A DNA stretch of 53,583 bases from a virus (lineage: Duplodnaviria > Caudoviricetes): positions 1 to 53,583 of IMG/VR virus record IMGVR_UViG_3300011335_000440; one strand, written 5' to 3'. Positions 3,790 through 23,368 of the stretch are shown piece by piece. The position numbers and the translations under genes were made by a program. A model generated the notes under the pieces. It had not been told where the DNA came from. It saw nothing but the letters and a program-made list of their open reading frames with translations, and searched no databases. The number at the start of each line of letters is the position of its first letter. Position 1 is the stretch's first letter.

Positions 3790-3791
3790 TC

Positions 3792-7434: not shown

Positions 7435-8634
7435 ATGGGATGGGTAAGTCAAGCAACTGATAAAGTCTCTGAGTCAATTGGCACATCAGGTAGTGGCAGT
7501 AGTACACTAGGCATTAACCTTGATGACTTATCTAAGACGCTCACCACTGACAGTAGCAAAAGTGGCATAGGCGCATTAGGCAAAGAGCTGACTAATAATG
7601 AGTTAGTCAACGCGGCAGCTGTTATTGCAGGTAGCTACTTTGGTGGGCCACTTGGTGCTGCAGCAACTAATGGCTTAATTTCTCGTGCGCAAGGTCATGA
7701 CTGGAATCAAGTTGTAAGTAACGCAGCAGCAGCAGGTATGCTTTCGTATGTTGCAGGTGGGCCGCAGTATGACTGGTCGGCAGCTGCTGAGCCCTTGTCA
7801 GGTGCAGAAGCAGGCTTAACAGAAGGCATCTCGTATGGTGGAGGCGGGGCTAATACCGCTGTTGAAGCCATTACGCCACAATATTCAGTCAATCAAGCTG
7901 TTGCGTCAGGTATGAGCCCAGGCTCTATGGGTGCAAGCATGGCAACTGACTACACAACAATGAATGGGGCTGCAGCATTGACTGATGCGCAAATAGCTGC
8001 TGCGCAAGGCGTAGTTACGAAGAGCGCACTGCCTGGGCTTTATGAAATGGCCCAAGTAGGCAACGCCGCAGCGTTAGCCAATCAGCTTGCAGATGCCGGC
8101 AGTGCCGCAAACATCGCAAGAATGCTAGGTGGAAGTGGCGGAAAACCAAATCTTTCTAATCTAGCCATCAACATCTTGGACACTAAAGATAAAGGCGTAA
8201 ACCCAGGCGGTTTGCTAACGCCATCATTGGTGTCTACTGGGCCTGTGCAGCAAGAGTCTTCCATACTAAAAAGCCTACCGCAATTGACTTTTGGGCATGC
8301 CCCTACTGTTGCTGCACTATCAAATAGTGCAGCGCCCCAAGGCTATAAGCGCGGCGGGCTTGCGCATCATCAGCCCGAGTTCATTACCGGAGCAACAGGC
8401 CACTATGTCAAAGGCAAAGGTGATGGCCAGTCTGACGACATCCCTGCAATGCTTGCTGATGGTGAGTATGTGTTTGATGCTGACACGGTTGCTGCGCTTG
8501 GCAATGGCTCTTCTGATGCAGGTGCACAACGGCTTGATGAAATGCGAAAAGCAATTCGTAAGCACAAGCGCTCAGCGCCTGTCGATAAAATACCCCCAAA
8601 GGCCAAGTCGCCTTTAGAATACCTCAAAGGATAA
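7435..8634 (+). CDS. internal virion/ejection protein
   Basis: A/G-rich; C-terminal YKRGG...G.GDGQSDDIPAMLADGEYV motif. Confidence 0.6.
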   Translation: MGWVSQATDKVSESIGTSGSGSSTLGINLDDLSKTLTTDSSKSGIGALGKELTNNELVNAAAVIAGSYFGGPLGAAATNGLISRAQGHDWNQVVSNAAAAGMLSYVAGGPQYDWSAAAEPLSGAEAGLTEGISYGGGGANTAVEAITPQYSVNQAVASGMSPGSMGASMATDYTTMNGAAALTDAQIAAAQGVVTKSALPGLYEMAQVGNAAALANQLADAGSAANIARMLGGSGGKPNLSNLAINILDTKDKGVNPGGLLTPSLVSTGPVQQESSILKSLPQLTFGHAPTVAALSNSAAPQGYKRGGLAHHQPEFITGATGHYVKGKGDGQSDDIPAMLADGEYVFDADTVAALGNGSSDAGAQRLDEMRKAIRKHKRSAPVDKIPPKAKSPLEYLKG

Positions 8635-8637
8635 ATC

Positions 8638-9618
8638 ATGGCAGATCTTGGCGCAGGCACTCCGCTACCGGACATTAAGTCGACAACGACGCAGGCCACA
8701 ACCACGCCTGCCTTCTACACTGATTACCTCAATAGCATTGCCAAGCAAGGGCAAACTGCAGGTGCAGGCGCGCAGTATATTGGCGCGCAGCCTTTACAGC
8801 AACAGGCCTACAATCTTGCAGGGTCAAACGTTGGCGCTACACAGCCTTACGTGCAGCAAGCTGGCAGTGCAGTAACCAACGCCCTAGGTACTAACATCCC
8901 AGGCGCTGCGCAGCAATACATGCAAGCTGCAGCTGCGCCAACGTATCAAACTGCGCAGCAGTATATGAACCCCTACACGCAAAATGTAGTGGAGTCCATT
9001 GGCGCGTTAGGCAACCAAAACATATCACAAAATCTGGCGCCGCAAACAACAGCAGGGATTGTTGGCGCAGGCCAGTTTGGCTCACAACGCGGCGCCAACG
9101 CACTAGCGCAAAACATTGCCAATGCAGGCGTAGGTGTTACAGGATTGCAAGCTGGCGCATTGCAAAGTGGCTACACACAAGCATTGCAGGCCGCGCAAAA
9201 CCAAGCCAATATGTACGGCACTCTTGCGCAGGTTGCAGGCAACCAAGCTGGTGCGCAAGGGCAAATGCAATTGTCAGGCGCACAAGCAGCACAGAATCTT
9301 GGCGCCGGTGCTCAGCAATTTAATTTGAACGACATCAACGCATTGTCCACCATGGGCTCGCAGCAACAGACTAACTTGCAAAATGAGCAGTTATTCCCGT
9401 TGCAAACATTGAGCAGTGAGGCCAACTTGCTGCGTGGCTACAATATGCCTACGTCTGTGTCTAGCACGTATGAAGGCCCAGGACAAGCAGGGCAATACGC
9501 ATCTTCGCCGCTATCTCAAATTGCTGGGCTTGGTAGCATGGTTGGCGGGCTATCGGACAGCAGCTTTGGGTCATGGCTGGGTGGTGCAGTCAAAGGCTGG
9601 CTCAAACCTAACGGATAA
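8638..9618 (+). CDS. internal virion/DNA ejection protein
   Basis: Q/A/G-rich helical; YMNPY and AGQFGSQR motifs. Confidence 0.65.
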   Translation: MADLGAGTPLPDIKSTTTQATTTPAFYTDYLNSIAKQGQTAGAGAQYIGAQPLQQQAYNLAGSNVGATQPYVQQAGSAVTNALGTNIPGAAQQYMQAAAAPTYQTAQQYMNPYTQNVVESIGALGNQNISQNLAPQTTAGIVGAGQFGSQRGANALAQNIANAGVGVTGLQAGALQSGYTQALQAAQNQANMYGTLAQVAGNQAGAQGQMQLSGAQAAQNLGAGAQQFNLNDINALSTMGSQQQTNLQNEQLFPLQTLSSEANLLRGYNMPTSVSSTYEGPGQAGQYASSPLSQIAGLGSMVGGLSDSSFGSWLGGAVKGWLKPNG

Positions 9619-9629: not shown

Positions 9630-11891
9630 ATGGCATTACCAACACTTCCTACAGCGCCAACTGGGCTGTCTGACGCGGCACAAACCGAGTACTTGGCAGC
9701 TTTGCAAAAAGTTGCTAGTAGTTTAGAAGCACGCAATACAAAGACTGACTGGTGGGGGCTTGCAGGCGCGTTTCTTGACCCAGGCCGTTCAGGCTCTTTT
9801 GGTGAAAGCTTAGGTCGCGCAGGCACACTTTTAAGTCAGCAAAATCGTGCTCGTGAAGAACAGGCCCCTAATATTGCAGCGTTGCAAGCATCCATTGCAG
9901 CACAGAAGTTTGAAACGCAAAACCAAGCTGAGGCTATGGGCATGCTAGGAAGCGCGCTAGGCTTAAATCCAGTTGCCCTTGCAAAAGACTTGCAAGACGG
10001 TACTGTGCCACCTGCTGTGGCTGGACAATTACAAAGCATTGACCCCAAGGTCTACCTTGCCATAGCCACCAAGAGCCCCAAAGTAGGCGCGCTGGTCAAA
10101 GACTACTCGAGCATGGTTACTCAAGCGCAAACCACTGACATTTCGCAAAAGCAATTACTGTTGGCGCAAAACCAAGCACTGTTTGGACAAGAAGTTAAGC
10201 GGCTTGAAATTCAAAATGCGCAGTTCAAATTGCAACTTGATTTGCTAGGCGCTGGCAATGACGCGGAAGCACGACGGCGCGCAACTGCTGAGTTTGTTGA
10301 TAAAGTGGGTGGGCCTGAAGAAGCTGCAAAGCTTGGCATTCGGCTTGAGCCGCCTATAGCACTACCGCAATTACCTGCTGCAACTATGCCTGCTGCAACT
10401 ATTCCAGCTGTTACAGTTGGCGGTGCTGCACGTGCGCCAGCGCTTGTTGCCACAGCTATTCCGGCCCCTGCCCCTGCCGCTGCTGCCCCTGCCGCTGCTG
10501 CCCCTGCCGCTGCTGCCCCGCCTCTTGCAGCTGTCATGCTTGCTGCAGGCATTACAGAGCCTGCGCCTAATTTGCGGTTTTCAAAAGCATTTATTGCTGA
10601 AGCACAAAGCAACCCAAACTCAAGGGCTGCTTTTATGTTGCCTAGGATGCTAACAAAGCCTGAGAGTTACGCGCTAGATTTTAGGCCCGATGCGTATTAC
10701 GACTTGGGGCCTAGTGGTCAAATCATTACCAAGCGTCTTGAGCCTACGGCAGTACCAGTTGCTGCACCCGCACCCGCACCCGCACCCGCACCAGCACCAG
10801 CACCCGCACCCGCACCAGCACCCGCACCCGCACCAGCACCAGCGCTGCCTGCTGCACCTGTACCAGTTGCTGCAGCAGCACCAGCACGCGTAACGCGCAA
10901 TGACCAAGCTGCAAAAGATGCCGAGGCCATACCTATATTGCAAGCAGAAAAGCAAAAAGCTGAAGCAAGGCTATTGGCAGCACAACAAGCAAAAGATACC
11001 GCGGGCACTACGCGTGCTATGGCTGATGTTGTTGCGCTTGATCGTGAGTTGAAATTGAGAGCGCAAAAAGCCATGGTGCCTGTGGCAACTGCAGCAGCGC
11101 CTATAAGCGCGACAGCACCGGCAGCAGCGGCAGCACCCGGTATGCTATCTACTGCAGCGCCTATCCCTGCCACCATACAGGGCGCACCGCGTCGTGCTTT
11201 GGAATTGGAAAATCAAAAAGGTGCAATACAGACGCAACAAGATGTCAATAAGTCGAATCTTGCCATACAGGAAAAAGAAGCTGAGAAACGTACTGCGCCG
11301 TATGTGCAAAAGCATGACTTGCTAGCAGGCTACGACTCTGCAACAGTTGCTGCCAACAATACCAAGTTTAATGAGCTAATTCAGATAGTCAAAGCCAACC
11401 CGAAAGTGGTAGGCTTGTTGACGCACCAAGGCCCCATGTATGCATTGGCGCAAGCTGCTGAGAGTGGAATTACAACGCCATGGGGTAGCCTTGCAGCTCC
11501 TGTGGGTGAAGCTGTTGCCAAGTTGCAATTGAATCCGCAAGAGCAAGCGGTTGCACGTAATGTTATGCAGCTAATCTCAGACTTGAATCAAGCTGTGATG
11601 AAGCAGGGCAAAGCAATTTACGGCCCGCAAATCAGCACGTTTGATGCGCAAAAGATGGCTGAGCCCGGGTTTAAGACTACTGACCCTGCGTCTTTCATTA
11701 TGTACCTTGCAGCTAAAAACAAGATCACGAACATCTATATGGGCAGAATGGCTGAAGCGCAAACTGATTACTTTGAGCAGAACCCTCGCGCAACAACAGC
11801 GTCATTCTTTAAGTCGAAGCCTTACAAGCAACTGGTTGGAGAATTTGCTGCAACATACCAAGACTTAGTTAGCAAGTCACCTTACAAATAG
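9630..11891 (+). CDS. large internal virion/ejection protein with Pro-Ala linkers
   Basis: 753 aa helical, A-rich; SFGESLG motif; position after tail genes. Confidence 0.6.
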   Translation: MALPTLPTAPTGLSDAAQTEYLAALQKVASSLEARNTKTDWWGLAGAFLDPGRSGSFGESLGRAGTLLSQQNRAREEQAPNIAALQASIAAQKFETQNQAEAMGMLGSALGLNPVALAKDLQDGTVPPAVAGQLQSIDPKVYLAIATKSPKVGALVKDYSSMVTQAQTTDISQKQLLLAQNQALFGQEVKRLEIQNAQFKLQLDLLGAGNDAEARRRATAEFVDKVGGPEEAAKLGIRLEPPIALPQLPAATMPAATIPAVTVGGAARAPALVATAIPAPAPAAAAPAAAAPAAAAPPLAAVMLAAGITEPAPNLRFSKAFIAEAQSNPNSRAAFMLPRMLTKPESYALDFRPDAYYDLGPSGQIITKRLEPTAVPVAAPAPAPAPAPAPAPAPAPAPAPAPAPALPAAPVPVAAAAPARVTRNDQAAKDAEAIPILQAEKQKAEARLLAAQQAKDTAGTTRAMADVVALDRELKLRAQKAMVPVATAAAPISATAPAAAAAPGMLSTAAPIPATIQGAPRRALELENQKGAIQTQQDVNKSNLAIQEKEAEKRTAPYVQKHDLLAGYDSATVAANNTKFNELIQIVKANPKVVGLLTHQGPMYALAQAAESGITTPWGSLAAPVGEAVAKLQLNPQEQAVARNVMQLISDLNQAVMKQGKAIYGPQISTFDAQKMAEPGFKTTDPASFIMYLAAKNKITNIYMGRMAEAQTDYFEQNPRATTASFFKSKPYKQLVGEFAATYQDLVSKSPYK
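10470..10514 (+). repeat. 3 x 15-nt tandem repeat GCCCCTGCCGCTGCT (APAAA)
   Basis: Read directly. Confidence 0.9.
10764..10841 (+). repeat. 13 x hexamer GCACC(C/A) encoding (AP)13
   Basis: Read directly. Confidence 0.95.
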
Positions 11892-11899: not shown

Positions 11900-13045
11900 A
11901 TGGGCAATGAGACCAAGACTGAAGACGCGCCAAAGTCTGCACTAGCAGAGTTGCTACCTGAACTGCATGATGACAAAGGCAACTTCTCGTATGGCCCGGC
12001 AGTGCCTGCGTCAGGTGCCAGTGCTCCAGGCCCAGGTGGTGACGCTGGTGAAGGCCCATTGGCATTGAATGGGGAATACCTATCAGCAGGTGTTGGGGCC
12101 ATTGCAGGGACCAAAGCGCCTAAGTATCGAGCGCCTAGCACTATGGCTGCGCGTTCACGACTTAGCGCTGCAGACGCTACTCTTGCAGGCGCAATAAATA
12201 GAGTTGAAACGTTGGATGAGGCATACAGCGATGCGTGGCATCAAGCTGAAGCTCGCTACAACGCAGCACGTACTGCAGCGCAGCAAACAGGTGAAGCACG
12301 AACAGCGGCACAGCAAATTGCGGCAGACTTAGGCTTAACTGATGAGATGCTAAATGTTGGCGATCTTGCAGGCGATAAGTGGAATGCAAAAGTTGTAGGT
12401 GATATGGGCCCGGGTGGCGCATCTGTCACTGAGGCTGCACGCAATTACCAAATTGAAAAAGGCCTGCCATCTGACTATAAATCCACACGCACAGGCATTG
12501 CAGTGCCACGTAGCTTTGAGGAAACGGCTGCGCAAAAAGAAGCACGTAAGCTATACGGGTACGCTAGTGCGGCGCATGTGCCTACACAAGCTGAGCTTGA
12601 AGCTGCTGAGGCGGCACGCACTGCAATGCAAACAAGGCCTGCGCCTCTTACGCAAGCTGAAGCCACACGTGACAGCGCACGCAGCGCACGCAGCGCAGCG
12701 CAGGCTCGAGTTGCCACGCTTGAAGAAGCCCGCTCTGTGCTTTCCAAAATCCCGTTTTTCAACACCATCATGGGTGGGCTATCCGGCTATGAAATCATGC
12801 ATGCTTACAATGCTTATAAAGCCGGTGATAGCGTTGACGCCATCCTTTCCGGTCTTAGTGGCGTAGGCGGCCTAGTGTCATTGGCACCACACCCAGTTGC
12901 AAAAGCTGTTGGTACTGCAATGACTTTGCCTGCAGTAGGCTACCAGGTGTATCAGGCATCTAAGAAGCCTTATGACTATAGGCCCAATACAGCTGGTGGC
13001 GGGGCAGGCGGCTCGGCGCCTCGAGGCGCACTGCCTGTCAACTAA
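11900..13045 (+). CDS. putative internal virion/ejection protein, last gene of late arm
   Basis: A-rich coiled coil with hydrophobic G-rich C-terminal helices; stop overlaps the convergent gene. Confidence 0.55.
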   Translation: MGNETKTEDAPKSALAELLPELHDDKGNFSYGPAVPASGASAPGPGGDAGEGPLALNGEYLSAGVGAIAGTKAPKYRAPSTMAARSRLSAADATLAGAINRVETLDEAYSDAWHQAEARYNAARTAAQQTGEARTAAQQIAADLGLTDEMLNVGDLAGDKWNAKVVGDMGPGGASVTEAARNYQIEKGLPSDYKSTRTGIAVPRSFEETAAQKEARKLYGYASAAHVPTQAELEAAEAARTAMQTRPAPLTQAEATRDSARSARSAAQARVATLEEARSVLSKIPFFNTIMGGLSGYEIMHAYNAYKAGDSVDAILSGLSGVGGLVSLAPHPVAKAVGTAMTLPAVGYQVYQASKKPYDYRPNTAGGGAGGSAPRGALPVN

Positions 13046-13752
13046 GCAAGTAGCTCTTTACCCTTCATGTAGAGCCAAGTCCGCAAGGCGGTCATACCGC
13101 CATCAATCAATACGTGGTTGGGGAACACTTGGTATTTATGGTAGAGCGGATGGTTGATGAAGTTCTTCATTAGCAGGTAAGCGTCAGCATCAGGCGGCGA
13201 CAATCCCATGGCCCTATCGGTGTCGTAGAACTTCAAGTCGTACTCGTCTTTGAACTCGTTGTTGATGGCATGCACCTGATCGCCTAGCAAACCGATCACA
13301 ATAACCCTAGGCTTTTTGACGCCTGTTGCGGCGTATGCGCCATTGTGCTTAGGCACATGGAACTCATGCTCTAACTCTTTCACCACAGCCGCAATCTCAT
13401 GTTTGAGCGTTGCTGCAATGCGTTTTGCTATAGCCTGCACCAAGTCATCAATTGTGCCTATAGACTCAGGCTCAGACTCCTTACTCGGTGGTTCTGAGGG
13501 CATAGAGCTCGGCGTTGTGGGTGGACATACATCCCTAGGGATTGGCACAACCTTGTAAGCTCTGGTTTTGACCTCTTTGACCAAGTCATTGGCTGCAGAG
13601 TGGGATGCAAAGTTTCTATGCCGCGAGAATGGCAGTGCATTTTGAGCTTGCTTAACAGCCTCAAATGCGCTGTAGCCGTCGCGTACAAACAAGTCAACTG
13701 CAACGGCAAGAACTGCCTCGCGTTCTTCAGATGTCCATCTAATCTTCGTCAT
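13042..13752 (-). CDS. two-domain hypothetical protein (helical N-domain; alpha/beta DUF2325-like C-domain)
   Basis: TTGAAAGGA RBS; RVIVIG...ADAYLLMKNFINH pattern. Confidence 0.55.
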   Translation of the reverse strand: MTKIRWTSEEREAVLAVAVDLFVRDGYSAFEAVKQAQNALPFSRHRNFASHSAANDLVKEVKTRAYKVVPIPRDVCPPTTPSSMPSEPPSKESEPESIGTIDDLVQAIAKRIAATLKHEIAAVVKELEHEFHVPKHNGAYAATGVKKPRVIVIGLLGDQVHAINNEFKDEYDLKFYDTDRAMGLSPPDADAYLLMKNFINHPLYHKYQVFPNHVLIDGGMTALRTWLYMKGKELLA

Positions 13753-13805
13753 GGTGTTTTCCTTTCAATGGTCAAGTTGGTGTGGTTGCCCACGGGTGGA
13801 TTATA

Positions 13806-13982
13806 TCACGTTGGTTTGTACATCGCGTCGCTGACAGCTTTTTGCCAATCCATGGCATTGACCATCTCAATCTTCAAAGACATAAGGGCCTCGATGACTG
13901 CCTCCATGGAGTGGCCATTACGAATCAGAACGTAGATGGCTTCCCTAAGATCATCTTCAGCGTGTAGGGCTTTGCTTGTCAT
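13806..13982 (-). CDS. hypothetical protein
   Basis: ATG at 13982 overlaps the TGA of the upstream gene. Confidence 0.55.
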   Translation of the reverse strand: MTSKALHAEDDLREAIYVLIRNGHSMEAVIEALMSLKIEMVNAMDWQKAVSDAMYKPT

Positions 13983-14764
13983 ACGTTCAGTAGCCATTTT
14001 GAGAATCCAAAGCGTGGGTTGACAGATTGCTCGATGAGCTGGTGTGCCTCATACCGAGAGATGCGGGGCGGTAAGTCTGCAATTGGCACATGCCGCTTGT
14101 ATGACAAGATGCTATTGAACATTTCCATGCGAGAGTCATACACGTGGAATGAGCCTACAGATACAGTCAAAGGGCCTGGGTTGACGTTCAACAAAACAGC
14201 CACCAGTTCCTGGAGAAAGCTAAATGTGGGTAGGTCATTGGCCATCCCCCAAAGAATGTCCTGAGACCTCATAATAACACGTGTATGCAATAGCGAATTG
14301 CGGAGCCTGAACTCGATGGCAATGGTGCAAGGCACATCTTTGGCGTCATGGGCTGTGTGGTCAAGATCGGTGCCATACATGGGGATGACTGCACGGCGGC
14401 TCATGGGGTCTGCCTGCAGCGTTTGCATGATGTATTTGACGCCTTGCGCGCCAAACCAGTATGAGCCATAGTTGCTGTTAAGCTTGCCATTGGCAACAAT
14501 CTTGCCCCATTGAGCTGCATGCTCAGCAATGGAAAGATCAAACGGGTTTGCACGTACGTACCATGCAAATTCGCGTTTGAGGTAGCTCAAATTGAAGTTG
14601 CGACCGTCAAATGAGTTGAACCTCACAAAGGGCGCAACAGAATACGTAAAGTTCTCAATCTCCAGCGTTCGCTCGCCACGTGGGCTAAGTAACGTGCCGT
14701 GTTCTCTAAGGACTTGGTACAGTCCTATCAGGGCTTCTTCAGTTTTGATGAGAGGAAATTCCAA
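13979..14764 (-). CDS. thymidylate-synthase-family enzyme, probable dCMP hydroxymethylase (or related dCMP C5-modifying enzyme)
   Basis: KREFAWY, SRRAV, DVPCT (catalytic Cys), MRSQDILWGMAND, SFHVY; TTG start at 14764 with GGAGG 6 nt upstream. Confidence 0.8.
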   Translation of the reverse strand: MEFPLIKTEEALIGLYQVLREHGTLLSPRGERTLEIENFTYSVAPFVRFNSFDGRNFNLSYLKREFAWYVRANPFDLSIAEHAAQWGKIVANGKLNSNYGSYWFGAQGVKYIMQTLQADPMSRRAVIPMYGTDLDHTAHDAKDVPCTIAIEFRLRNSLLHTRVIMRSQDILWGMANDLPTFSFLQELVAVLLNVNPGPLTVSVGSFHVYDSRMEMFNSILSYKRHVPIADLPPRISRYEAHQLIEQSVNPRFGFSKWLLNV

Positions 14765-14765
14765 G

Positions 14766-15680
14766 TTAAGCCTCCGTGATATGGTAGGGTTGGTCAGGGT
14801 AGTTCTGCATGTGATGCAGAGGTGGTGGCAACTTAATCGCTTTGATTGAGTTGTTGAGGGCCCATGTGTAGGCATTGTTGCCTAGGGCAAAGATTCTTGA
14901 TGGCTTCAGTTTGTCGATGAAGCCGGTATCGGTAGGCGTGCCTTGCGATGTTTGTGTGTTGATCCAGTACAGCATACGCTCGGTGATGCCTTCCTGCTCC
15001 AGTGCTTGTGCCAGCATGCGACTGGGGCCATCATTGTCGAGGAAGTTGACAAAGGGCACAACCACAGCTGTTGATTTGACATTGGTTTGAGGGCCCTTGT
15101 CGCAAAGCATTAGGATATTCCCATACTTAAAGGCTCCGCCACCACTGGCGTGGTTCTGGATGGACGCAGCCGCTATCTTGAGGAACAATTCATCCACATC
15201 ATCATGAACGTAGTCATAGTGGATCACAGGCAAATGCGTTTGCAAGTCCAGCGTTTCATATGCTTGGTACACATCACGCAACTGGTCAACGTTATCAAGG
15301 TACTCAGGCCGCTTTGAGAAAGTCTCAGCGCAGACATCAAAGTCAGGCTGGCAGAGGACAACCACGGCGCCACGTGATAGTGCAGTACGCTCAAGCATAC
15401 GGCGGCGTGGCATATCAACACGTGAAACGCCATTGCGATACGCATCGCCGTAGATAGGCTCAGACAGCCACGACCTATCCATGATGACTGTGTCATCAAA
15501 GGACAGTGCCGGTGACATGGCCCTGAAGTAGATCCTGCACAGATGCTCAGCATCAATCCCCGAGTAGGGGCCGTGCTTGACCATGTGCTGTATCCCCTGC
15601 TTGTGGCGCAAATGCAATCGCAGTTTCTCCGCGAGAGTAGATTTGCCGCCACCGTCTGGGCCTTCAAGAATTATGAGCAT
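14766..15680 (-). CDS. dNMP (thymidylate-kinase-like) P-loop kinase fused to a UDG-like C-terminal domain
   Basis: IILEGPDGGGKST, MDRSWLSEPIYG; C-terminal ILMLCDKGP..PF..YWIN..KPSRIFALGNNA..KLPPP. Confidence 0.75.
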   Translation of the reverse strand: MLIILEGPDGGGKSTLAEKLRLHLRHKQGIQHMVKHGPYSGIDAEHLCRIYFRAMSPALSFDDTVIMDRSWLSEPIYGDAYRNGVSRVDMPRRRMLERTALSRGAVVVLCQPDFDVCAETFSKRPEYLDNVDQLRDVYQAYETLDLQTHLPVIHYDYVHDDVDELFLKIAAASIQNHASGGGAFKYGNILMLCDKGPQTNVKSTAVVVPFVNFLDNDGPSRMLAQALEQEGITERMLYWINTQTSQGTPTDTGFIDKLKPSRIFALGNNAYTWALNNSIKAIKLPPPLHHMQNYPDQPYHITEA

Positions 15681-16567
15681 ACATAGCTTTCAAGTTTCAT
15701 TACCGTCGTGTCAATATCAATTTCAAAACGCAAACTGTTTGCTTGCGCTTGTGCAACCATTTGCAAACTGGCATCACCCATATTTTCTAGGTCTTTCATT
15801 GACCAAGCATACGGGGTGCCAATTACTCCAAGCTCTTCAGGGCTTCCTCCAAGTACACAGCCGGCATGAGCAGCGTGTAGGTATCTGACTCGCCACCATC
15901 CAGAGCCGGCATGGGCGTAAGTTGGACACAAAACTCCTTTGTACTGGCCGTATTGCCAGACAACGTCATCCTCAAGGATACGTGGTTGCCCCAAAGCTTT
16001 TCCACCAACACTGTGAACTGGCCATGATAGGTTTTGCTCTGTTGTCCAGACATGGGCGTCTTTCGATAGGGATGCGTTGTACCACTCAGTTTTGCGTTGG
16101 TGCCATGAAAGCTTATGCACAGGTGGCATTCTGCAAAGTGGTGATGGGTCCCACATCCTGATCTCACGAACATCCAAGCCCATCTTTGTGGTGTCGCCCC
16201 AAGGGAATAGTGGGGCCAGCCACACACGATCTTGCAGCTTTTCCGCATCAATTTTGTGGCACCACGAAGGCATGATCAATCTGAATGACCAGTCGTCAAG
16301 GCATATGTAAGCATCAGGCCTTTGCTCCAATGCATACACAGCCCCGACGTGGTCAATGGCGTTACCGTCAAGCGGGTAAAGGTACACAAACACAGTGTCA
16401 TAGCCTGAAAGATCCTCGCCAACCACGGTTGCGCGGTGATCTACTTGGTGGCCTAAGCGTGTGTATGCGTAGGCCATCATTTCAGGTATAGAGACGAACT
16501 TCGTAGAGCTAGCTCTATTCGGATGATTGATGTGCGTCTCTGTGACGCCTGTGATGAGTAACTTCAT
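15671..16567 (-). CDS. putative GT-B glycosyltransferase (DNA beta-glucosyltransferase-like)
   Basis: MKLLITG..LGHQVD..DLSGYDTVFV N-terminal Rossmann pattern, CLDDW, C-terminal RVRYLHAAHAGCVL; adjacent to kinase and TS homologue. Confidence 0.6.
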   Translation of the reverse strand: MKLLITGVTETHINHPNRASSTKFVSIPEMMAYAYTRLGHQVDHRATVVGEDLSGYDTVFVYLYPLDGNAIDHVGAVYALEQRPDAYICLDDWSFRLIMPSWCHKIDAEKLQDRVWLAPLFPWGDTTKMGLDVREIRMWDPSPLCRMPPVHKLSWHQRKTEWYNASLSKDAHVWTTEQNLSWPVHSVGGKALGQPRILEDDVVWQYGQYKGVLCPTYAHAGSGWWRVRYLHAAHAGCVLGGSPEELGVIGTPYAWSMKDLENMGDASLQMVAQAQANSLRFEIDIDTTVMKLESYVCS

Positions 16568-16568
16568 G

Positions 16569-16811
16569 TTAGGCTGCGACGGCTTCTTCTGCAGGGGTCA
16601 AGGAGATGTACTCATACGCTGCGTCGTAGTGCACGTCGCTAGAACGTCCACCAGCTGCAGTGTACTCGCCCACGGTCATACCGTCTTCATACAACGCAAA
16701 GCGTGCATGGGCAAGGGTGCCTTCACGCTTGGGGTTGGATTCAGCAAGCATGTTGATGACGGTGTCTTTCTTGATACGATTGCGAGTTGCAACGGGGGCT
16801 TCTTTTGCCAT
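16569..16811 (-). CDS. small conserved hypothetical protein
   Basis: AAAGGA RBS before ATG 16811; NPKREGT..H.RF..Y..GMTV.EY motif. Confidence 0.6.
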   Translation of the reverse strand: MAKEAPVATRNRIKKDTVINMLAESNPKREGTLAHARFALYEDGMTVGEYTAAGGRSSDVHYDAAYEYISLTPAEEAVAA

Positions 16812-16858
16812 AATGGTTTCCTTTAAGATGAAATGAAAATAACTTACTTTGCGTAATG

Positions 16859-18250
16859 TCAATGGTCAGTGCTGCTAATTGTATCACGTTTAATGTAGTC
16901 ACGCACAGCATTCAGCAACTTTTGTTGCGTCTTATCTTTGCGCTTTACAGCAGACATGATGGCTTCGTCAATGGTGTCAGCAGCCACGATATGGTGCACC
17001 ATCACGTTATTCTTTTGCCCTTGCCTCCAGATTCGGCGGATGAACTGCTCGTAGACTTCCAAAGACCAAGTCAGAGAATACCAAATGACTGCATGGCCGG
17101 CGCCTTGTAGATTCAGTCCATGGCCTGCAGACATAGGGTGGGCTAGCAGCACAGGCAGTTGGCCTGTATTCCAGCCCATGATGATCTTGTCCAGCCTTGA
17201 GCCTACCACACCTGAGCCAATCACCGGTGCATGTGGGAAAGCTTTCTTAAGACGTTCAAGGTCATGTTGAAAGTGGTAGCCAATGATGCAAGGCTGGCCG
17301 GATAGCTCCTCAACCAGCTCGGCAACGGCGTCAGTCTTGGCGTCATGCACATGCAATGTGTGCCTGCCTTCACCATCAAGGTAAGAGCCACCATTGGCGA
17401 TCTGCTGGCCTTTCATCACAGCAACTGCAGCATTAGCCGCCGTGACCTCGCCACCTTCAAGTTTGACTGTCAGGTCTGCCTCAAAAGAATCGTACATTTT
17501 ACGTGCATTAGGCGGAAGTTCGATTCTGATAGTGTTGTAGGCCAAATCAGGCAAGTCAAGGTGATCGAGAGCTGCCATCCGCAACACTTTATCATGAAGC
17601 TTTTCTTGGATTCGTTGTTCCCCATCTGACTTTAGCTTCCATTCAAAGCCATTGAAACCTGATGGGTAGAAGTACTCATCACGAAATCGTGACACGTAGG
17701 GCCCAAACGTGGCCCCCTGGTCAATGATTAACTGTGGTCCAAATATGTCCAATAGGCTATTAGGCGCGGGTGAACCAGTGAGTCCCCAGCGGCGGTTGAA
17801 TTTATTGAGCATTGTCTTCAATGTCTTGAAGCGTTGGGACTGTGTATTTTTCAGATACGAAATCTCATCCACAACAAGAATGTCAAAAGGCCAAGGGGCG
17901 CCATTCAACTTATGCCCCAACCAGCCTAGGCCTTCATAGTTGATGACGTAGATGTCATGGTTAGCAGCCAGCACTTTATCTTTCTTGCCACCATGCAGCA
18001 CGCCAACTGAGTAGTGCACAAACTGTTCCCACTTACGTGTTTCATTAGGCCACACTGCATGCACAGGTCGCAATGGCGCAACAACCAACATTTTGCTACC
18101 CATCTCAGCAAGCCGCAGCGTACGAAACGCAGACAGCACAATGGCGGTTTTACCTAAGCCCGGGTCCAACCATAGTTGTCCTGAGCCACGCTCAACCAGA
18201 AACTTTACAGCTTCTTTCTGATACTCATGCGGTTCCCAAAACACTATCAA
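16859..18250 (-). CDS. SNF2-like superfamily 2 helicase
   Basis: LDPGLGKT, VVDEIS, LTGSP, GHGLNLQ, QFIRRIWRQGQ motifs. Confidence 0.9.
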   Translation of the reverse strand: MIVFWEPHEYQKEAVKFLVERGSGQLWLDPGLGKTAIVLSAFRTLRLAEMGSKMLVVAPLRPVHAVWPNETRKWEQFVHYSVGVLHGGKKDKVLAANHDIYVINYEGLGWLGHKLNGAPWPFDILVVDEISYLKNTQSQRFKTLKTMLNKFNRRWGLTGSPAPNSLLDIFGPQLIIDQGATFGPYVSRFRDEYFYPSGFNGFEWKLKSDGEQRIQEKLHDKVLRMAALDHLDLPDLAYNTIRIELPPNARKMYDSFEADLTVKLEGGEVTAANAAVAVMKGQQIANGGSYLDGEGRHTLHVHDAKTDAVAELVEELSGQPCIIGYHFQHDLERLKKAFPHAPVIGSGVVGSRLDKIIMGWNTGQLPVLLAHPMSAGHGLNLQGAGHAVIWYSLTWSLEVYEQFIRRIWRQGQKNNVMVHHIVAADTIDEAIMSAVKRKDKTQQKLLNAVRDYIKRDTISSTDH

Positions 18251-18512
18251 TCCCTTCTTTTGAGTTGATCACAAAGACTTTGTGGCCACGTATCTTCAAT
18301 TGGTCATGCACCTTCTCTTGCATAGGGGAGACTACACCGCCTGGACGTTTGAGTTCCACCCACAACACCTCACCATTTTCAAGAGGCACAATGCGATCGG
18401 GCCATCCGCGTGCAAAGCGTACGTTCAGTTTCAACGACATAATGCCATGCTTTTTGCATTGCTTTGTAAAGTACGCCTCAAGGTCACGCTCAAGGATAAT
18501 GCGTGTCACCAT
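18225..18512 (-). CDS. VRR-NUC domain nuclease
   Basis: LERDLE, GWPDRI, WVELKRPGG, SPMQ motifs. Confidence 0.85.
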   Translation of the reverse strand: MVTRIILERDLEAYFTKQCKKHGIMSLKLNVRFARGWPDRIVPLENGEVLWVELKRPGGVVSPMQEKVHDQLKIRGHKVFVINSKEGIDSVLGTA

Positions 18513-19141
18513 TTGCAAGGGCCGCCATTGTCTTTTCTGAAGTGGCACCACTTGCAACCATACTCTGGCCGTGGCGCAAAAATGGTGTCTTTTTCGATGC
18601 GGTAAATGCGATTGTCAATCCACAGCTTTAAACTAGGAAACTCTTTGCGAGTGATGACGTCATACGACTGCATCTTCTTAAGGTCCACATACACGATGTC
18701 AAGATTGACTGTTTGCACTTCAGGGTATGCCGCAAGCACCAATGCTGCGTAAAGCTTCAGTTGCTCTTCATAGAAGCGTTCCTTGCCTGTTTTCCAATCA
18801 GCAATGTAGGCTGCAGTGCCATCAATGGTGAAAATATCGAGGATGCCGCGTAGCCACGCATCAGGGTCGGAAAAACTGCAAGGCGACCAATCGCGTTTAA
18901 TGCCAAGCTCAAGCTCAGGCTGCACTTTTTTTGACTTCAGCAACTCAACGTAGTCATGCCAATACGTCAATTCAGGTGAAAGAAGCGTAAGGCCTATGAG
19001 TGACTTTTCAAGCTCTGCATGGATTTGCTTACCACGCTCAGCAGCATCGCCTGAAGGCTCTTTGAGATGCATGATGCGTATGAATTTGTACTTTGCAGGG
19101 CACTGCTCATAGAGCTTTATGCTTGAATGTGAAAGGCTCAT
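18506..19141 (-). CDS. PD-(D/E)XK Cas4/RecB-like exonuclease
   Basis: SHSSI..YEQCP, G..IH, RGILD, ADWKTG, QL.LY, C-terminal CKWC..C. Confidence 0.85.
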   Translation of the reverse strand: MSLSHSSIKLYEQCPAKYKFIRIMHLKEPSGDAAERGKQIHAELEKSLIGLTLLSPELTYWHDYVELLKSKKVQPELELGIKRDWSPCSFSDPDAWLRGILDIFTIDGTAAYIADWKTGKERFYEEQLKLYAALVLAAYPEVQTVNLDIVYVDLKKMQSYDVITRKEFPSLKLWIDNRIYRIEKDTIFAPRPEYGCKWCHFRKDNGGPCKW

Positions 19142-20955
19142 TTTGTTTCCTGATAGTTATTGCCAACCTTGTAGTCACTGATCATCGGTACGTCCATAGC
19201 CAAGGCGTTGCACATGGACCACATTAGGCATTCAGCCTCACGCTCAATAGCATCAACCGGTGCTGAGATCACCAGCTCATCATGCACACTGAGTAGCAAC
19301 CTACTACCTTGCCGCTTTTTTTGGTACAGTAGCATTGCAGCCTTGGCCTGATCAGCCGCTGAGCCTTGAATCAACAGATTCACGCCCTTATAGTCAAACT
19401 CACGGCGGCGGCCATTGATGACTTTAGGCGGCTCCATTTTGACCAGCCGGCCGCCTACTGTTTTAAGTGGCTGCCCCAGCTTGTAGCGTTGCCGCATGGT
19501 TGCCTGCATGTCTTTGAGACCTGGCGCCACAGCTGTGGTGTATGCATCCACGAGTGTCTTGGCCATCTCAAAATCTACGCCTAACATGTCTGCAATCTTG
19601 GTGGGGCCTGCGCCGTACAGAATCGCAAAAGACACACCTTTTGAGTAAGTTCTTGACACCTCACGGCCAATGGCTTGGGTCATCATCTCAGCTGCGTAAG
19701 TATGCAGATCAGCACGGGCATCGGCTTGGTACTGCTTCATCAGGTTGCCACCTTCAAAGTGCGCAAAGATTCTGAGCTCCTGTGCATTGAAATCGCATGC
19801 CACCAGCTTGTGGCCTTCATCTGCCAAGATGAAGCTACGTATCAGTGGCAAGGGGGACACCGAAAGCTCTGGTGGTATATCCACCTTTGGGTAGCGAATG
19901 GGGGCATTCTGGAAGTTCGGAGTGCTACTGAGCCTGCCTGTCCGTGTGCCACCTCGTTCACCCCTGACGCTATTCCAATTGGTGTAGATACGACCGGTGG
20001 TTGCGGATGCTTCCAGCCACGAATCGATGAACGTTGATAGGCATGTTGACAAGTTGGCGCGGTACCTAAGGACATCCTTGAGATGGTGGTGCGTTAGCAT
20101 CTCTTTGAAAGCTTCAGTGGTAGCTTGTAGCTGGCCTTTGTCGGTTGCGGGCCAGACTTTACTTTTGTCCCAGAGCTCAGATTGATAAATACTTTCGACC
20201 AGCTGTTGGTCGCTATCAACATTCAATTCAGGAGACCCTAACAATGCGCGAACCCAAACGTTACATGCCTCAATGTCTTTTACTGCTTGTGCTTGTGCAG
20301 CAAGCAAGCCTTCACGATCTACACGTACGCCTAGACTTGAGTTCTCAAGCAGCATCGGTATCAGTTCAATCTCACGCTGATAGGCAACGAGCTGATCGGG
20401 CAAAACCTTCTCAGCCAAAAACTCGTAAAGCTGTGAAGTAAGCCGGACATCAGCCTTGGCGTAGCGGCCTACCAACTCGGTGGGGCCTTTGCAAATGTAG
20501 GCACCCCAGGTGGATTTCTTTTTCTTGGCCTCAGGCACATTCTCAATGATCCATGCCTTAAGCTCATCGCGCTCTTCAGGCTCTGCAATGCCCCATTCGA
20601 CAACCAAGTCTTTTAGGGAAAGAGACCTAACATGCGGATCAAATAGAAAAGCAAGAATAAGGGTATCATGCACACGCCGATGATCAGGCATAGATAGCCC
20701 AAAATGAACGTCAATGACATCAGCATCGAACATAGCGTTATGAAAGCACATATCACGCTCACCAGCATAGATCTTAGAAAGTAAAGCATGCACTTCATCC
20801 TTTGTGCTGTTGTTGTTATGCAGGTGGTCAAAAGCGTAGTACCCATCAGGCACCTCGCCTTCAGGGTCAAAGACAGCAAGGCCTACCGGTTTTGGCGGGT
20901 ACTTAGGCCTTGCTTCAATGCCTTCAGTTTCAAAGTCAAGAAAGATGGGTTTCAT
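19138..20955 (-). CDS. polA: family A DNA polymerase with 3'-5' exonuclease domain
   Basis: DFET, HNAMFD, TGRLSS.PNFQN, DFNAQELR, K...FAILYG, IQGSAAD, VHDE. Confidence 0.95.
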   Translation of the reverse strand: MKPIFLDFETEGIEARPKYPPKPVGLAVFDPEGEVPDGYYAFDHLHNNNSTKDEVHALLSKIYAGERDMCFHNAMFDADVIDVHFGLSMPDHRRVHDTLILAFLFDPHVRSLSLKDLVVEWGIAEPEERDELKAWIIENVPEAKKKKSTWGAYICKGPTELVGRYAKADVRLTSQLYEFLAEKVLPDQLVAYQREIELIPMLLENSSLGVRVDREGLLAAQAQAVKDIEACNVWVRALLGSPELNVDSDQQLVESIYQSELWDKSKVWPATDKGQLQATTEAFKEMLTHHHLKDVLRYRANLSTCLSTFIDSWLEASATTGRIYTNWNSVRGERGGTRTGRLSSTPNFQNAPIRYPKVDIPPELSVSPLPLIRSFILADEGHKLVACDFNAQELRIFAHFEGGNLMKQYQADARADLHTYAAEMMTQAIGREVSRTYSKGVSFAILYGAGPTKIADMLGVDFEMAKTLVDAYTTAVAPGLKDMQATMRQRYKLGQPLKTVGGRLVKMEPPKVINGRRREFDYKGVNLLIQGSAADQAKAAMLLYQKKRQGSRLLLSVHDELVISAPVDAIEREAECLMWSMCNALAMDVPMISDYKVGNNYQETK

Positions 20956-21218
20956 TGCATGAAGTATTTAAGACGTGGATAGCATTGCACGTCAATGACA
21001 ATGTCGGACATCAATCCGGAGACAAGGCGTTTTGAGGTAATAGGTACAGCACGCATGTTGCTGCCCTCACACTCATGAATTGCATTGATGACCTCATTGC
21101 GGCTCATTTGCTGAACCCTAGGGTCAACCATCAATATCACTTCAGGAGGTGAAGGCGGCATAATGGTGTTGCATGCAGCGACAGGTATGGCGCACAAAAG
21201 ACAGACTATCTTTTTCAT
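20952..21218 (-). CDS. small putative lipoprotein
   Basis: MKK + hydrophobic core + VAAC lipobox. Confidence 0.6.
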   Translation of the reverse strand: MKKIVCLLCAIPVAACNTIMPPSPPEVILMVDPRVQQMSRNEVINAIHECEGSNMRAVPITSKRLVSGLMSDIVIDVQCYPRLKYFMQ

Positions 21219-21235
21219 TGCATGCACCTTTGTTG

Positions 21236-22003
21236 TTAGAACCGAGTCGACTGAGTTGCAGGTGCGGCGGCTTCACCCTCATCGCCTTCTTGTATGCCTG
21301 CAGATTCGATTGCCTTAGTTGCCTCAATGGCGCCACGCTTCATCAAAGCCTGCAATACTGCAGAATCCTCAATGGCCTTGACCATGGTGAAGTTAACCTT
21401 GAATTGCGTCTTGGCATCAGGCACCACGGCAATCTCAGTGATGACACCCAGTGTAGGGCGGCGCAAAGTTGCGGCAATGGTTTGGATGTAAGTGGCGTAG
21501 TTGCGCAGGCTGGTAACAGGTGGGCGCAATGCTGCAACCTCAGCAGCTTCAACAGCCGCAGCCGAGCCAATGCTATCTGCGGGAATGACCAGCAGGCGGC
21601 GTGTCTCACGGCAAGCTTTGCCTTTGCCACCGCTGGTAGAACTACCCCATTCATTCTTGGCACAACCTTCGCATGTTGCGTTCTCAGGAGCCTCGACACT
21701 GGCAACGGGGCCCATGCCAATGGCGCTTACAGAGATTGCAAAGCACTTAGGCGGGGTGGCCTTGGTTGCGTCGTACCGCGAGTCATAGTACAGGCGCTCG
21801 ATGGGGCCGGCAATGATGACGCATTGCAGTTTGTTGTTGGCCACGGGGTTGCCGCGGTAAGTAAGCACACCGGACTTGGTGGAGAGGAATGCTGTGCCGA
21901 GGGTTGATTGCTCAGCCTTGACGTTTTCCATTGCCATTGCGGCGAGTTGATCTTCGAAGAGAGCCAGTTGGTTCTCAGGGGTGACTGCAGGGGGTTTAGC
22001 CAT
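21236..22003 (-). CDS. conserved replication-module protein (possible ssDNA-binding/annealing protein)
   Basis: AAAGGA RBS; C..C..N.WGS..GKGKAC motif; acidic C-tail ending in F; upstream of polymerase. Confidence 0.55.
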   Translation of the reverse strand: MAKPPAVTPENQLALFEDQLAAMAMENVKAEQSTLGTAFLSTKSGVLTYRGNPVANNKLQCVIIAGPIERLYYDSRYDATKATPPKCFAISVSAIGMGPVASVEAPENATCEGCAKNEWGSSTSGGKGKACRETRRLLVIPADSIGSAAAVEAAEVAALRPPVTSLRNYATYIQTIAATLRRPTLGVITEIAVVPDAKTQFKVNFTMVKAIEDSAVLQALMKRGAIEATKAIESAGIQEGDEGEAAAPATQSTRF

Positions 22004-22032
22004 GATACGGATCCTTTGTAAATAGAAACAAG

Positions 22033-22404
22033 TTACGAGTTTTTGCGACGGATGCTAATTTCCCAAGAACTGGTCGCAACAGTTCCCGGTATTTCTTTGC
22101 CAGCTTCCCAACGCTCGCGGATAGCTGCCGAAGACAATCGTTTGTGGAGCAACTCGAACTCGCCGGTTTGCGCCACGTGTTTGTAAAAAGCGTCCCAATC
22201 AGTGATGGCAGGATGCGTGACCTTTTTCATGCTGCATGAAGCCTTATCAGACGCTGCCTGTGAGATGCCTGTATTGGCCATTTGCTCCATGATGTCAGCC
22301 TCAATAGCTGCCAGCTTTTCGTTGCATTGCTTGACCTGCTCTGCCAGATCTTCCTTAGCAGCTTTGACTTCTACAAAGCGGTCGATGAGTTCACTAATTT
22401 TCAT
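22033..22404 (-). CDS. conserved hypothetical coiled-coil protein
   Basis: DWDAFY...LLHKRLS...IPG motif; ATGA overlap. Confidence 0.6.
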   Translation of the reverse strand: MKISELIDRFVEVKAAKEDLAEQVKQCNEKLAAIEADIMEQMANTGISQAASDKASCSMKKVTHPAITDWDAFYKHVAQTGEFELLHKRLSSAAIRERWEAGKEIPGTVATSSWEISIRRKNS

Positions 22405-22814
22405 GATGTTGCTTTCTTGTGTGCGTTGAGAATGTTGATGATGCCGGGCTCAGGTGGGTACCAGCCTGCAGGCTTAACCACATCATATTGGTTGCCACGA
22501 ATAGATCGTTGGTAGTCATTGGCAGGCACTTTGGACATATTGCAGTCATGCACCACAGCAAAGATTTCGTCAAGCGGCAGCCCCATTGCATGGGCCATCC
22601 CCATTGTGACGTAGATGAGGTCAGCAAGTGCATCTGCAGCATCGACCAAGGAGCCTTCCTCACAAGCTTTAAGATGCTCTGAGAGCTCCTCCATGATGAA
22701 CCTAGCAAAGTAGCTGGTTTGCTCAGCAGGCAGAAGTTGTGGGTGGTCGCCAATAGGCAGGCCCATCTTGGTGCGAAACTCTTTGACTTTGTCGTACATG
22801 GTGTGATAGCGCAT
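22401..22814 (-). CDS. MazG-like all-alpha NTP pyrophosphohydrolase
   Basis: EELSE...DALADLIYV..G...VH..NMSK...KPAGW; TAATG overlap with upstream gene. Confidence 0.8.
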   Translation of the reverse strand: MRYHTMYDKVKEFRTKMGLPIGDHPQLLPAEQTSYFARFIMEELSEHLKACEEGSLVDAADALADLIYVTMGMAHAMGLPLDEIFAVVHDCNMSKVPANDYQRSIRGNQYDVVKPAGWYPPEPGIINILNAHKKATS

Positions 22815-23335
22815 TACGCGGCCTCTTGGTAAGTGCGGCCTGACCAGAGATCGGACAGCCACATGGGTGGGGGTTTGTTGCCTTTGAAGTACACCATAGG
22901 CATGGTTTGCAGCTTGCTGGCGTAGTACTTACGGTAGGATTCGACATGGTCGGCTGACTTGTAATCATCAGGCATTGCCAATGGCGGAGGCTGCCACAGC
23001 AGAGGCAGTTTGTACATAGCAGGTGGGGCTTGCATAAGCTGGTCGACCAGCACCTGGTGTGACTTGTGCAGCTTAAGGTAGCGCAGTTTGAACTGGCGGC
23101 CAAGTGTTAGGCCGAGCTCAACAACCCAGTCATAGTGGAGCCTGCTTTGACGCACCCAGATTGCACTTGGATGGTTTTTGTGGGTAGGCCTATAGGTTAC
23201 GGCATCGCCATTGTCAAAGTGGTGGTGAGCCGTGGCCAGAAGCTGGCAGGATTCGATAAGCATTTTGCCGACATGCTTGTCGCAATGCATACTGCCGGCA
23301 ATAGTAGGCAGATGGTGGAGATAGAACACATTCAT
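22814..23335 (-). CDS. pyrimidine-dimer DNA glycosylase-like protein
   Basis: MNVFYL...HCDKHV.KM..E..QLL, H.NHPSAIW.R, AMPD.YK, YR.YY motifs. Confidence 0.75.
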   Translation of the reverse strand: MNVFYLHHLPTIAGSMHCDKHVGKMLIESCQLLATAHHHFDNGDAVTYRPTHKNHPSAIWVRQSRLHYDWVVELGLTLGRQFKLRYLKLHKSHQVLVDQLMQAPPAMYKLPLLWQPPPLAMPDDYKSADHVESYRKYYASKLQTMPMVYFKGNKPPPMWLSDLWSGRTYQEAA

Positions 23336-23362
23336 AAATACCTTTCAACAATCAGTACTGCA

Positions 23363-23368
23363 ATTATA
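23363..23368 (-). promoter_or_regulatory. sigma70-type -10 box (TATAAT) upstream of the glycosylase-like gene
   Basis: TTGTATAAT on minus strand ~28 nt before ATG; no clear -35. Confidence 0.45.

Follow-up and report, generated by a model that had tools for sequence, protein, structure and literature searches.

The glucosylated 5-hydroxymethylcytosine (5hmC) of phage T4 is produced by a pathway comprising the dCTPase gp56, the deoxycytidine monophosphate (dCMP) hydroxymethylase gp42, the deoxynucleoside monophosphate kinase gp1 and the alpha- and beta-glucosyltransferases, the UDP-glucose being made by the host. In this study we analysed a viral sequence of 53,583 bases from IMG/VR (IMGVR_UViG_3300011335_000440, estimated completeness 81%; the whole stretch is referred to here as the window), in which three adjoining minus-strand genes at 13979-16567 encode a GT-B-like glycosyltransferase, a fusion of a P-loop kinase with a domain of uracil-DNA glycosylase (UDG) fold, and a thymidylate synthase (TS) homologue. 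Our analyses favour, with a probability of roughly 0.55, a T4-like pathway in which 5-hydroxymethyl-dCTP (5hmdCTP) would be synthesized before replication and 5hmC subsequently glycosylated in DNA with a host nucleoside diphosphate (NDP)-sugar, as suggested by active-site signatures, predicted folds and gene context.

Comparable gene sets have been described in other phages. In RB69, DLP3 and RL38JI, the genes for a TS homologue, a Tmk/YorR-like 'nucleotide kinase' and a GT-B transferase lie side by side, sugar-nucleotide synthesis genes are also encoded, and the TS homologue carries the substitution D169N and makes 5-hydroxy-dCMP (5hodCMP), according to the portions of Lee et al. (2026; PMC13326640) available to us. 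Phage GT-B DNA glycosyltransferases with an architecture resembling T4 beta-glucosyltransferase (BGT), about 28% of them associated with thymidylate synthase genes in metagenomes, are documented in the accessible part of another report (bioRxiv 10.1101/2023.12.21.572611). Both the kinase/glycosyltransferase/TS core and the presence of GT-B DNA glycosyltransferases beside TS homologues are already published in these two sources. The sections at hand of the MetaGPA study (PMC8670742) report that cytosine-modified contigs carry PRA-PH, TS and dCMP deaminase domains together, and describe the characterisation of a 5hmC carbamoyltransferase. The hypermodification of thymidine in M6, ViI and other phages likewise involves a TS-family hydroxymethylase, a P-loop kinase (5-hydroxymethyluracil (5-hmU) DNA kinase) and a transferase (aGPT-Pplase), but there the base is uracil, the kinase acts on DNA, and the transferase is predicted to be helix-hairpin-helix glycosylase-like, rather than of UDG or GT-B fold (PMC8989533). 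Finally, Brig1, of family-4-UDG-like structure, acts on glucosyl-5hmC, and Brig3, of the UDG superfamily, acts on 5hmC (PMC11078745, PMC13160076), which indicates that the UDG fold can read either base. New in the window are what is most likely a compact operon for 5hmC synthesis and glycosylation, a divergent GT-B family, and a kinase-UDG fusion of which no earlier description was found in full-text literature searches (supplementary gene lists lying outside the search).

The TS homologue (13979-14764, minus strand, 261 amino acids) matches PF00303 (E 8.6e-17; 61.6 bits against a cut-off of 24.3), and among its relatives in the PDB, true thymidylate synthases are outranked by the two best, MilA, a CMP hydroxymethylase (E 2.5e-15), and the dCMP hydroxymethylase of T4 (E 9.5e-14). 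Its active-site signature was read at the positions corresponding to 143/146/147/166/167/169/173/177 of E. coli ThyA, in an alignment with ThyA, T4 gp42, RB69 gp48, M6 gp58 and others. The window protein reads DCTRSDGD and is identical to T4 gp42 (DCTRSDGD) at all eight positions, compared with LCHRSDGN in ThyA, ECTRSNVD in the 5hodCMP synthase RB69 gp48, and DCNRSDGN in M6 gp58, the TS homologue taken here as the dUMP hydroxymethylase of that phage, which keeps N177. The catalytic Cys is present at position 146; as in gp42, Asp occupies the positions of both L143 and N177, the latter being the residue that the first-pass annotation had rightly called the dCMP-type Asp; and Asp is retained at D169 (RSQD), where RB69 gp48 has Asn (RSQN). 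According to the available text of Lee et al. (PMC13326640), enzymes with N177D use dCMP, replacement of L143 by an acidic residue goes with a product other than a methylated one, and D169N distinguishes the 5hodCMP synthases, Asn being present in all those tested. From these residues we predict that the TS homologue is a dCMP hydroxymethylase, and neither a 5hodCMP synthase nor a dCMP methylase; the 5hodCMP-synthase identity was dropped because D169 is retained.

The same signature prevails among relatives: 135 of the 142 TS copies from the fetched loci read DCTRSDGD, although some contigs were fetched twice and the copies are consequently not 142 independent sequences. The remaining copies comprise DCHRSDGD in locus L117, LCHRSDGD in L132, two truncated copies, two with an ambiguous residue and one unaligned at these positions. 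The L132 protein (7864-9228, 454 amino acids), whose gene adjoins a fusion gene, is a strong ThyA match (E 6e-75) that keeps L143 and H147 while carrying N177D, and is predicted to be a dCMP methylase, of a kind reportedly present in the 5mC phage XP12. In Pseudoxanthomonas phage PW916, the TS homologue (3280-4098) is annotated as a deoxyuridylate hydroxymethyltransferase, yet dCMP is its more likely substrate because it has Asp at the N177 position and the T4 gp42 signature.

The fusion gene (14766-15680, minus strand) encodes 304 amino acids, and the first-pass description of a kinase fused to a UDG-like part was borne out by a Tmk/YorR-like fold over residues 1-170 and a UDG fold over residues 174-304. 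The corresponding segments of the minus strand are 15162-15680 for the P-loop kinase domain (residues 1-173) and 14766-15161 for the UDG-superfamily-fold domain (residues 174-304 and the stop codon). An AlphaFold2 model built from 44 sequences reached a predicted local distance difference test (pLDDT) score of 92.4 and a predicted template modelling (pTM) score of 0.91, indicating a confident, fixed arrangement of the two domains. Compared with known structures using VIA-align, residues 1-170 matched thymidylate kinase 1g3u (Z 15.0) and the SPbeta protein YorR 2axp (Z 14.3), and YorR 2axp was also matched by the kinase sequence profile (E 2.7e-11). YorR is likewise the top Foldseek match of DLP3 gp78 in the portions of PMC13326640 available to us. 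With hhalign, the kinase aligned with RB69 gp45 over 88 columns at a probability of 95.5, whereas with M6 gp54, a 5-hmU DNA kinase, only 36 P-loop columns aligned (82%). PF02223 (Thymidylate_kin) is matched by 31 of 44 relatives at E <= 0.01, and the invariant residues of the domain are G7, D9, G12, K13, D68, R69, R94 and R98, with G7-x-D9-x-x-G12-K13 as the P-loop. We propose from these features that the domain is a kinase for 5-substituted dCMP, which fits the finding that the fusion accompanies dCMP-specific TS enzymes whatever their product.

The remaining gene of the trio (15671-16567, minus strand) encodes a protein of 298 amino acids. Its AlphaFold2 model (42 sequences; pLDDT 89.6, pTM 0.87) displays the two-Rossmann GT-B fold, in agreement with its initial designation as GT-B-like, and T4 BGT is its top or near-top structural match. 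Searched with VIA-align against 48,161 chains, the model matched T4 BGT (1c3j_A) with Z 16.2 and rmsd 4.0 over 273 of 298 residues, followed by SenB (Z 16.0), PimA (Z 15.8) and T4 alpha-glucosyltransferase (Z 14.6); the first three are effectively tied, and the listed rows are GT-B enzymes or domains. The top Foldseek matches were SenB (E 2.5e-6) and T4 BGT 1j39 (E 3.0e-6). At the level of the model the GT-B fold is thus confirmed, and DNA would be the acceptor. Language-model neighbours of the protein include viral clusters with PF09198 (T4-Gluco-transf) or PF13524, PF09198 being carried by such neighbours only. Residues invariant in 42 homologues include D92, W93, E199, G221, G223, W224, W225, R226 and R228, among which D92, W93 and G221-x-G-W-W-R-x-R228 are candidate counterparts of BGT D100 and of its UDP-binding Arg/Glu residues.

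Homologues of the GT-like protein occur in other phage lineages. In the T4-like Aeromonas phages, Aes508 gp220 lies in an early DNA-metabolism region and adjoins UDP-galactopyranose mutase, as does the homologue in phage DSL-LC01, and the TS of both Aes508 and DSL-LC01 is of the T4 type. In the Gordonia Forzaviruses the homologue is found near a second glycosyltransferase, with a kinase-TS-deaminase cluster, again with a T4-type TS, elsewhere in the genome. T4-type TS genes co-occur with the GT-like homologues in Aes508, Mareelih and DSL-LC01. A UDG-like domain is not claimed for DSL-LC01 or the Gordonia phages, whose kinases match only the N-terminal part of the query, or in which no kinase matches it.

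Compared with T4, the window follows the same logic, with a TS homologue equal to gp42 at the eight positions and a GT-B enzyme with T4 BGT as top VIA-align match, but its kinase, joined to a UDG-fold domain, is of the Tmk/YorR type rather than gp1-like, its transferase has no detectable sequence similarity to BGT, and the window spans about 54 kb with a PolA-based replication module and no dCMP deaminase match. The suggestion that this logic had been rebuilt from different parts holds, therefore, for the kinase, which clearly belongs to another family than T4 gp1 and resembles RB69 gp45, but not for the TS, which is homologous to gp42 with the same signature, nor for the transferase, which shares the T4 beta-glucosyltransferase fold. 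The trio resembles that of RB69, DLP3 and RL38JI in its adjacent genes and, in RB69, in the matching kinase profile, but differs in the retained D169 of its TS and in the UDG-fold domain that their kinases lack (RB69 gp45 has 182 amino acids).

The four genes named in the first-pass annotation, the trio and a MazG-like gene upstream on the minus strand, are all present as open reading frames (ORFs). The latter (22401-22862) encodes an all-alpha NTP pyrophosphohydrolase of the MazG/PRA-PH type that matches PF01503 (65.5 bits, cut-off 21.3) and phrog_671, with 3nl9 and DR2231 as its best PDB sequences, and which we propose to be a dCTPase and/or dUTPase. Within the minus-strand replication arm it is followed, in order, by PolA (19138-20955), nucleases of the PD-(D/E)XK and VRR-NUC types, an SNF2 helicase (16859-18250), a small ORF and then the trio. 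The longest ORF of the TS gene starts at ATG 14875 and would overlap the fusion gene by 110 bases; the most likely start, however, is TTG 14764, 6 bases past a GGAGG at 14775-14771, from which the 261-residue product agrees at its N-terminus with its homologues and the TS gene abuts the fusion gene without that overlap. Since the GT-like and fusion genes overlap by 10 bases, the three genes with this start abut as a translationally coupled unit. The small minus-strand ORF between the helicase and GT-like genes (16569-16862, likely start ATG 16811, about 80 amino acids) has its stop codon 1 base from the GT-like gene start and is a possible further member of the operon; 77 of the 80 close loci keep it, and neither Pfam nor PHROG offers a match.

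In the pathway that we consider best supported, the MazG-like enzyme would hydrolyse dCTP, and perhaps dUTP, to the monophosphate, and the TS homologue would hydroxymethylate dCMP at C5, as the active-site signature shared with T4 gp42 suggests. The kinase domain of the fusion would then convert 5-hydroxymethyl-dCMP (5hmdCMP) to the diphosphate, a host NDP kinase would yield 5hmdCTP, and the phage PolA would incorporate it. After replication, the GT-B enzyme, to judge from its fold and gene context, would glycosylate the 5-hydroxymethyl groups of the DNA, using an NDP-sugar supplied by the host. The donor would be host-made because the sugar-nucleotide families PF03275, PF00483 and PF01370 have no match in the window; the earlier claim that sugar-nucleotide synthesis genes are missing holds for these three families only, in a record about 81% complete. 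Every computational test that was run supports the T4-style logic of C5 modification of cytosine followed by glycosylation: the TS signature, the NMP-kinase fold, the GT-B fold nearest to T4 BGT, the MazG-like gene, synteny, and the restriction resistance of phage AXL3 discussed below.

More than 300 stretches in IMG/VR encode relatives of the fusion protein. In a close set of 80 loci from the clade of the window (fusion protein 39-96% identical), a GT-like homologue lies upstream of the fusion gene in all 80, and a TS gene lies downstream in 78, the two misses being loci that end inside the fusion gene at a contig end. The gene-neighbourhood survey thus found the trio syntenic in 78 of 80 close loci, a figure that reflects conservation within one lineage, not independent association. 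In a distant set of 12 fusion carriers below 55% identity to the protein of the window, phage AXL3 among them and with some near-duplicate pairs, the fusion gene directly precedes a TS homologue with Asp at the N177 position in every case, a dCMP deaminase gene follows in 11, and tblastn detects a MazG homologue in 8. The accessory position is occupied by a small-molecule-type S-adenosylmethionine (SAM) methyltransferase in 7/12 of these loci and by a GT-like homologue in 2/12, never by both together (0/12). This class I methyltransferase (Methyltransf_23/12/31/11/25) stands beside the MazG, fusion and TS genes in the AXL3-type loci L001, L002, L091, L094, L117, L134 and L150, and may serve there as an alternative enzyme for tailoring 5hmC. 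In L095, a C5-cytosine DNA methylase (PF00145, E 2e-10) and a dUTPase_2-type protein (1303-2391, 2235-2750) are encoded between the GT-like and fusion genes, and a TSCPD-domain ORF separates the TS and dCMP deaminase genes.

A nucleotide query of 6 kb, compared with 50,697 phage records, returned one 206-base match at 69% identity, and hence no close cultured relative at the DNA level. The closest cultured carriers of the fusion are Stenotrophomonas phage AXL3 and PW916 (33-36% identity over 88-96% of the query), whose gene row consists of the methyltransferase, MazG, the kinase-UDG fusion, TS and dCMP deaminase. They share with the window the TS signature, a homologous MazG (the window protein is 32% identical to AXL3 gp30, which is encoded immediately beside the fusion gene of that phage) and the closest named PolA, but they have no GT-B gene, carry the small-molecule-type SAM methyltransferase at the accessory position, keep the motif-B His in the UDG-fold domain, and have a TS only 28% identical to that of the window. 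Of 37 restriction enzymes, only two cleaved AXL3 DNA, and their sites (AATT, TTAA) consist of A/T alone; modified G/C was suggested by the authors, in the part of the report available to us (PMC7504290). This resistance fits a modification of cytosine by the shared core. The TS itself has its closest cultured homologues (37-38% identity, same signature) in clusters of the type represented by Xanthomonas phage Xp15 and Acinetobacter phage Effie, which also encode a hydrolase and a dCMP deaminase; the tailoring enzyme of Xp15 is annotated as a Nol-like carbamoyltransferase, not a GT-B protein, and the kinase-UDG fusion was not seen in the stretches fetched for this type.

The second domain of the fusion combines conservation with altered motifs. 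In a wide VIA-align search, residues 174-304 matched the Thermotoga family-4 UDG 1l9g at rank 48 (Z 9.6, rmsd 2.8, 118 residues aligned), while a Foldseek search with the whole fusion model returned a list filled by kinase matches. At the sequence level, 5 of 44 relatives match the Pfam UDG family PF03167 (best E 6e-8), the window protein itself having no match; the profile reached E of about 0.02 against family-4 UDG chains, and a single-sequence search of the PDB with the UDG-like part of one relative (P0101) gave 0 matches. The histidine of motif B (HPS/HPQ) is catalytic in UDGs. Motif B is His-Pro in 29/30 distant relatives but Pro-Pro in all 14 sequences of the window clade; the first residue of motif A is Gly in 26/30 of the former as opposed to Cys in 14/14 of the latter, and the motif A acid is Asp or Glu in 29/30 and Asp in 14/14, respectively. 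N241 is invariant. The domain, at about 130 amino acids, is shorter than family-4 UDGs (about 190), and its identity within the clade exceeds that of the kinase domain (73.5% versus 66.4%), indicating that it is under selection; by its motifs it is probably not a canonical glycosylase. Six short standalone homologues of the UDG-like part were found, all on contigs of 537-2915 bases and probably fragments. An identity as aGPT-Pplase was dropped, that family being predicted to be helix-hairpin-helix (PMC8989533), in contrast to the UDG fold found here.

Several observations weigh against the T4-like pathway with DNA as the acceptor. The GT-like protein has no Pfam, NCBIfam or PDB sequence match; its 42 homologues have no Pfam match, PF09198 included, at E <= 0.1; its profile gives 0 matches to PDB sequences at E <= 10; hhalign provides no sequence-level link to T4 BGT (probability 1.6%), and BLASTP detects no similarity to RB69 gp46 and gp47. 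Furthermore, the tie of T4 BGT with the non-DNA glycosyltransferases SenB and PimA leaves room for an acceptor other than DNA. The fusion protein scores 26.0 bits against PF02223, below the curated cut-off of 27. The MazG-like gene is located about 6.7 kb from the trio, not within it, and its nearest solved relative, DR2231, is presumably a dUTPase. A dCMP deaminase (PF00383) has no match in the window, a record about 81% complete, compared with its presence in 11/12 distant relatives. Lastly, the part assigned to the UDG-fold domain is a guess: in view of the motif-B Pro of the clade, it would most likely be a non-canonical pyrimidine-binding module in rigid contact with the kinase, and not a standard glycosylase.

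Different scenarios might accommodate these observations. The phage DNA could contain plain 5hmC, or 5hmC decorated with something other than a sugar, while the GT-B protein has an acceptor other than DNA, such as a phage protein, a small molecule or a glycan of the host envelope; the fold tie, the lack of a sequence-level match to any DNA glycosyltransferase and the 10/12 distant loci in which the fusion and TS core lacks a GT-like gene speak for this scenario. We nonetheless hold it to be unlikely, if a serious contender, as the GT-like gene is translationally coupled to the fusion gene through the 10-base overlap, is fixed at its position in 80/80 close loci, has homologues in four phage lineages that all possess a T4-type TS, and in the T4-like Aeromonas phages lies in the early DNA-metabolism region beside a sugar-nucleotide mutase. 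A departure at the preceding step, with the TS homologue making dTMP, 5-methyl-dCMP or 5-hydroxy-dCMP, seems highly improbable: its specificity is inferred from a few residues, and the chemistry of the family has already proved surprising, since 5hodCMP synthases use flavin (in the available text of PMC13326640), but N177D speaks against dUMP as the substrate, L143D against a methyl product, and the retained D169 against 5-hydroxy-dCMP, and the best solved relatives are hydroxymethylases.

The remaining alternatives concern the fusion. Its UDG-fold domain could be an active repair or quality-control glycosylase, co-expressed with the kinase by virtue of the fusion, which removes U, 5hmU or T opposite G, the lesions left by deamination when all cytosine of a genome is 5hmC or 5mC. 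The motifs kept by distant relatives and the five Pfam UDG matches are compatible with such a role, as are the dCMP deaminase of 11/12 distant loci, which could raise dU or hmdU pools, and the PolA-UDG fusions reported in T-modified phages (PMC13697223, as far as its accessible text goes). The loss of the motif-B His and of the motif-A Gly in 14/14 clade sequences, despite 73.5% conservation, the reduced size of the domain and the lack of standalone copies other than six short matches on contigs below 3 kb nevertheless make it distinctly unlikely. Alternatively, the fusion could act on DNA and be for cytosine what the 5-hmU DNA kinases are for uracil, the UDG fold flipping out 5hmC and the kinase phosphorylating its hydroxymethyl group into an activated intermediate for a downstream transferase. 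A base-flipping fold rigidly fused to a P-loop kinase, the DNA kinase and transferase of thymidine hypermodification (PMC8989533) and the recognition of 5hmC or glucosyl-5hmC by the host enzymes Brig3 and Brig1 would all agree with this proposal, which we judge very unlikely given that the kinase resembles NMP kinases and RB69 gp45, with a likeness to the M6 enzyme limited to the P-loop, and that the downstream enzyme has a glycosyltransferase rather than an aGPT-Pplase fold. Moreover, the window revealed no other candidate 5hmdCMP kinase, making a need at the nucleotide level probable, and the 5-methyl-dCMP predicted as the product of the L132 TS has no hydroxyl to phosphorylate, which argues for the nucleotide, not DNA, as the kinase substrate. 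Finally, the UDG-fold domain might have lost its glycosylase chemistry and been repurposed to read C5-modified cytosine, coupling precursor supply to DNA, a possibility that we regard as unlikely; under it, the domain might dock the enzyme on nascent hmC DNA, shield hmC from host glycosylases of the Brig1/Brig3 type, or present 5hmC for phosphorylation in the manner of the 5-hmU DNA kinases. Brig1 and Brig3 are themselves host-encoded, standalone and catalytically active defence enzymes, and their likeness to the domain of the window is that of a shared superfamily.

Elsewhere in the window, the replication arm near the MazG-like gene also encodes a DUF932 protein (23448-24410, minus strand, E 2e-52) and a Pam3 gp33-like/Gam-like protein (DUF7307; 22033-22404, minus strand), and a Pfam scan of 10 further small ORFs of this arm gave no useful match. 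A promoter and terminator scan of 12800-23500 detected fewer sites than shuffled controls, and no tRNA genes were found in the window. On the plus strand, a 753-residue protein (9630-11891) encoded amid structural genes contains long tracts rich in Ala and Pro, among them an (AP)n repeat roughly 30 residues in length, and PHROG gives no match at E <= 1e-5 for a 1573-residue ORF (35005-39726) flanked by the terminase and portal genes. The initial description of the genome as podovirus-like could not be confirmed, as a PHROG scan of 10 large ORFs yielded no decisive tail marker; the nearest named relatives by PolA bear siphovirus-type names or record descriptions.

Whether a phage withstands restriction enzymes, CRISPR nucleases and the recently discovered glycosylase defences is decided by modified cytosines, and the enzymes that produce these bases are now tools of biotechnology. 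The operon of the window, with three coupled genes and a MazG-like gene, is a candidate route to glycosyl-5hmC beyond the T4-like phages, and a very compact one, and its divergent GT-B family extends to Aeromonas T4-like phages and Gordonia phages, where it is found beside sugar-mutase or second glycosyltransferase genes. AXL3, a carrier of the fusion with restriction-resistant DNA, offers a cultured experimental handle. The most interesting point is the conserved yet motif-altered UDG-fold domain which, should it prove to be of the reader type, would represent a new enzyme or anti-defence class across a widespread group of phages that includes AXL3.

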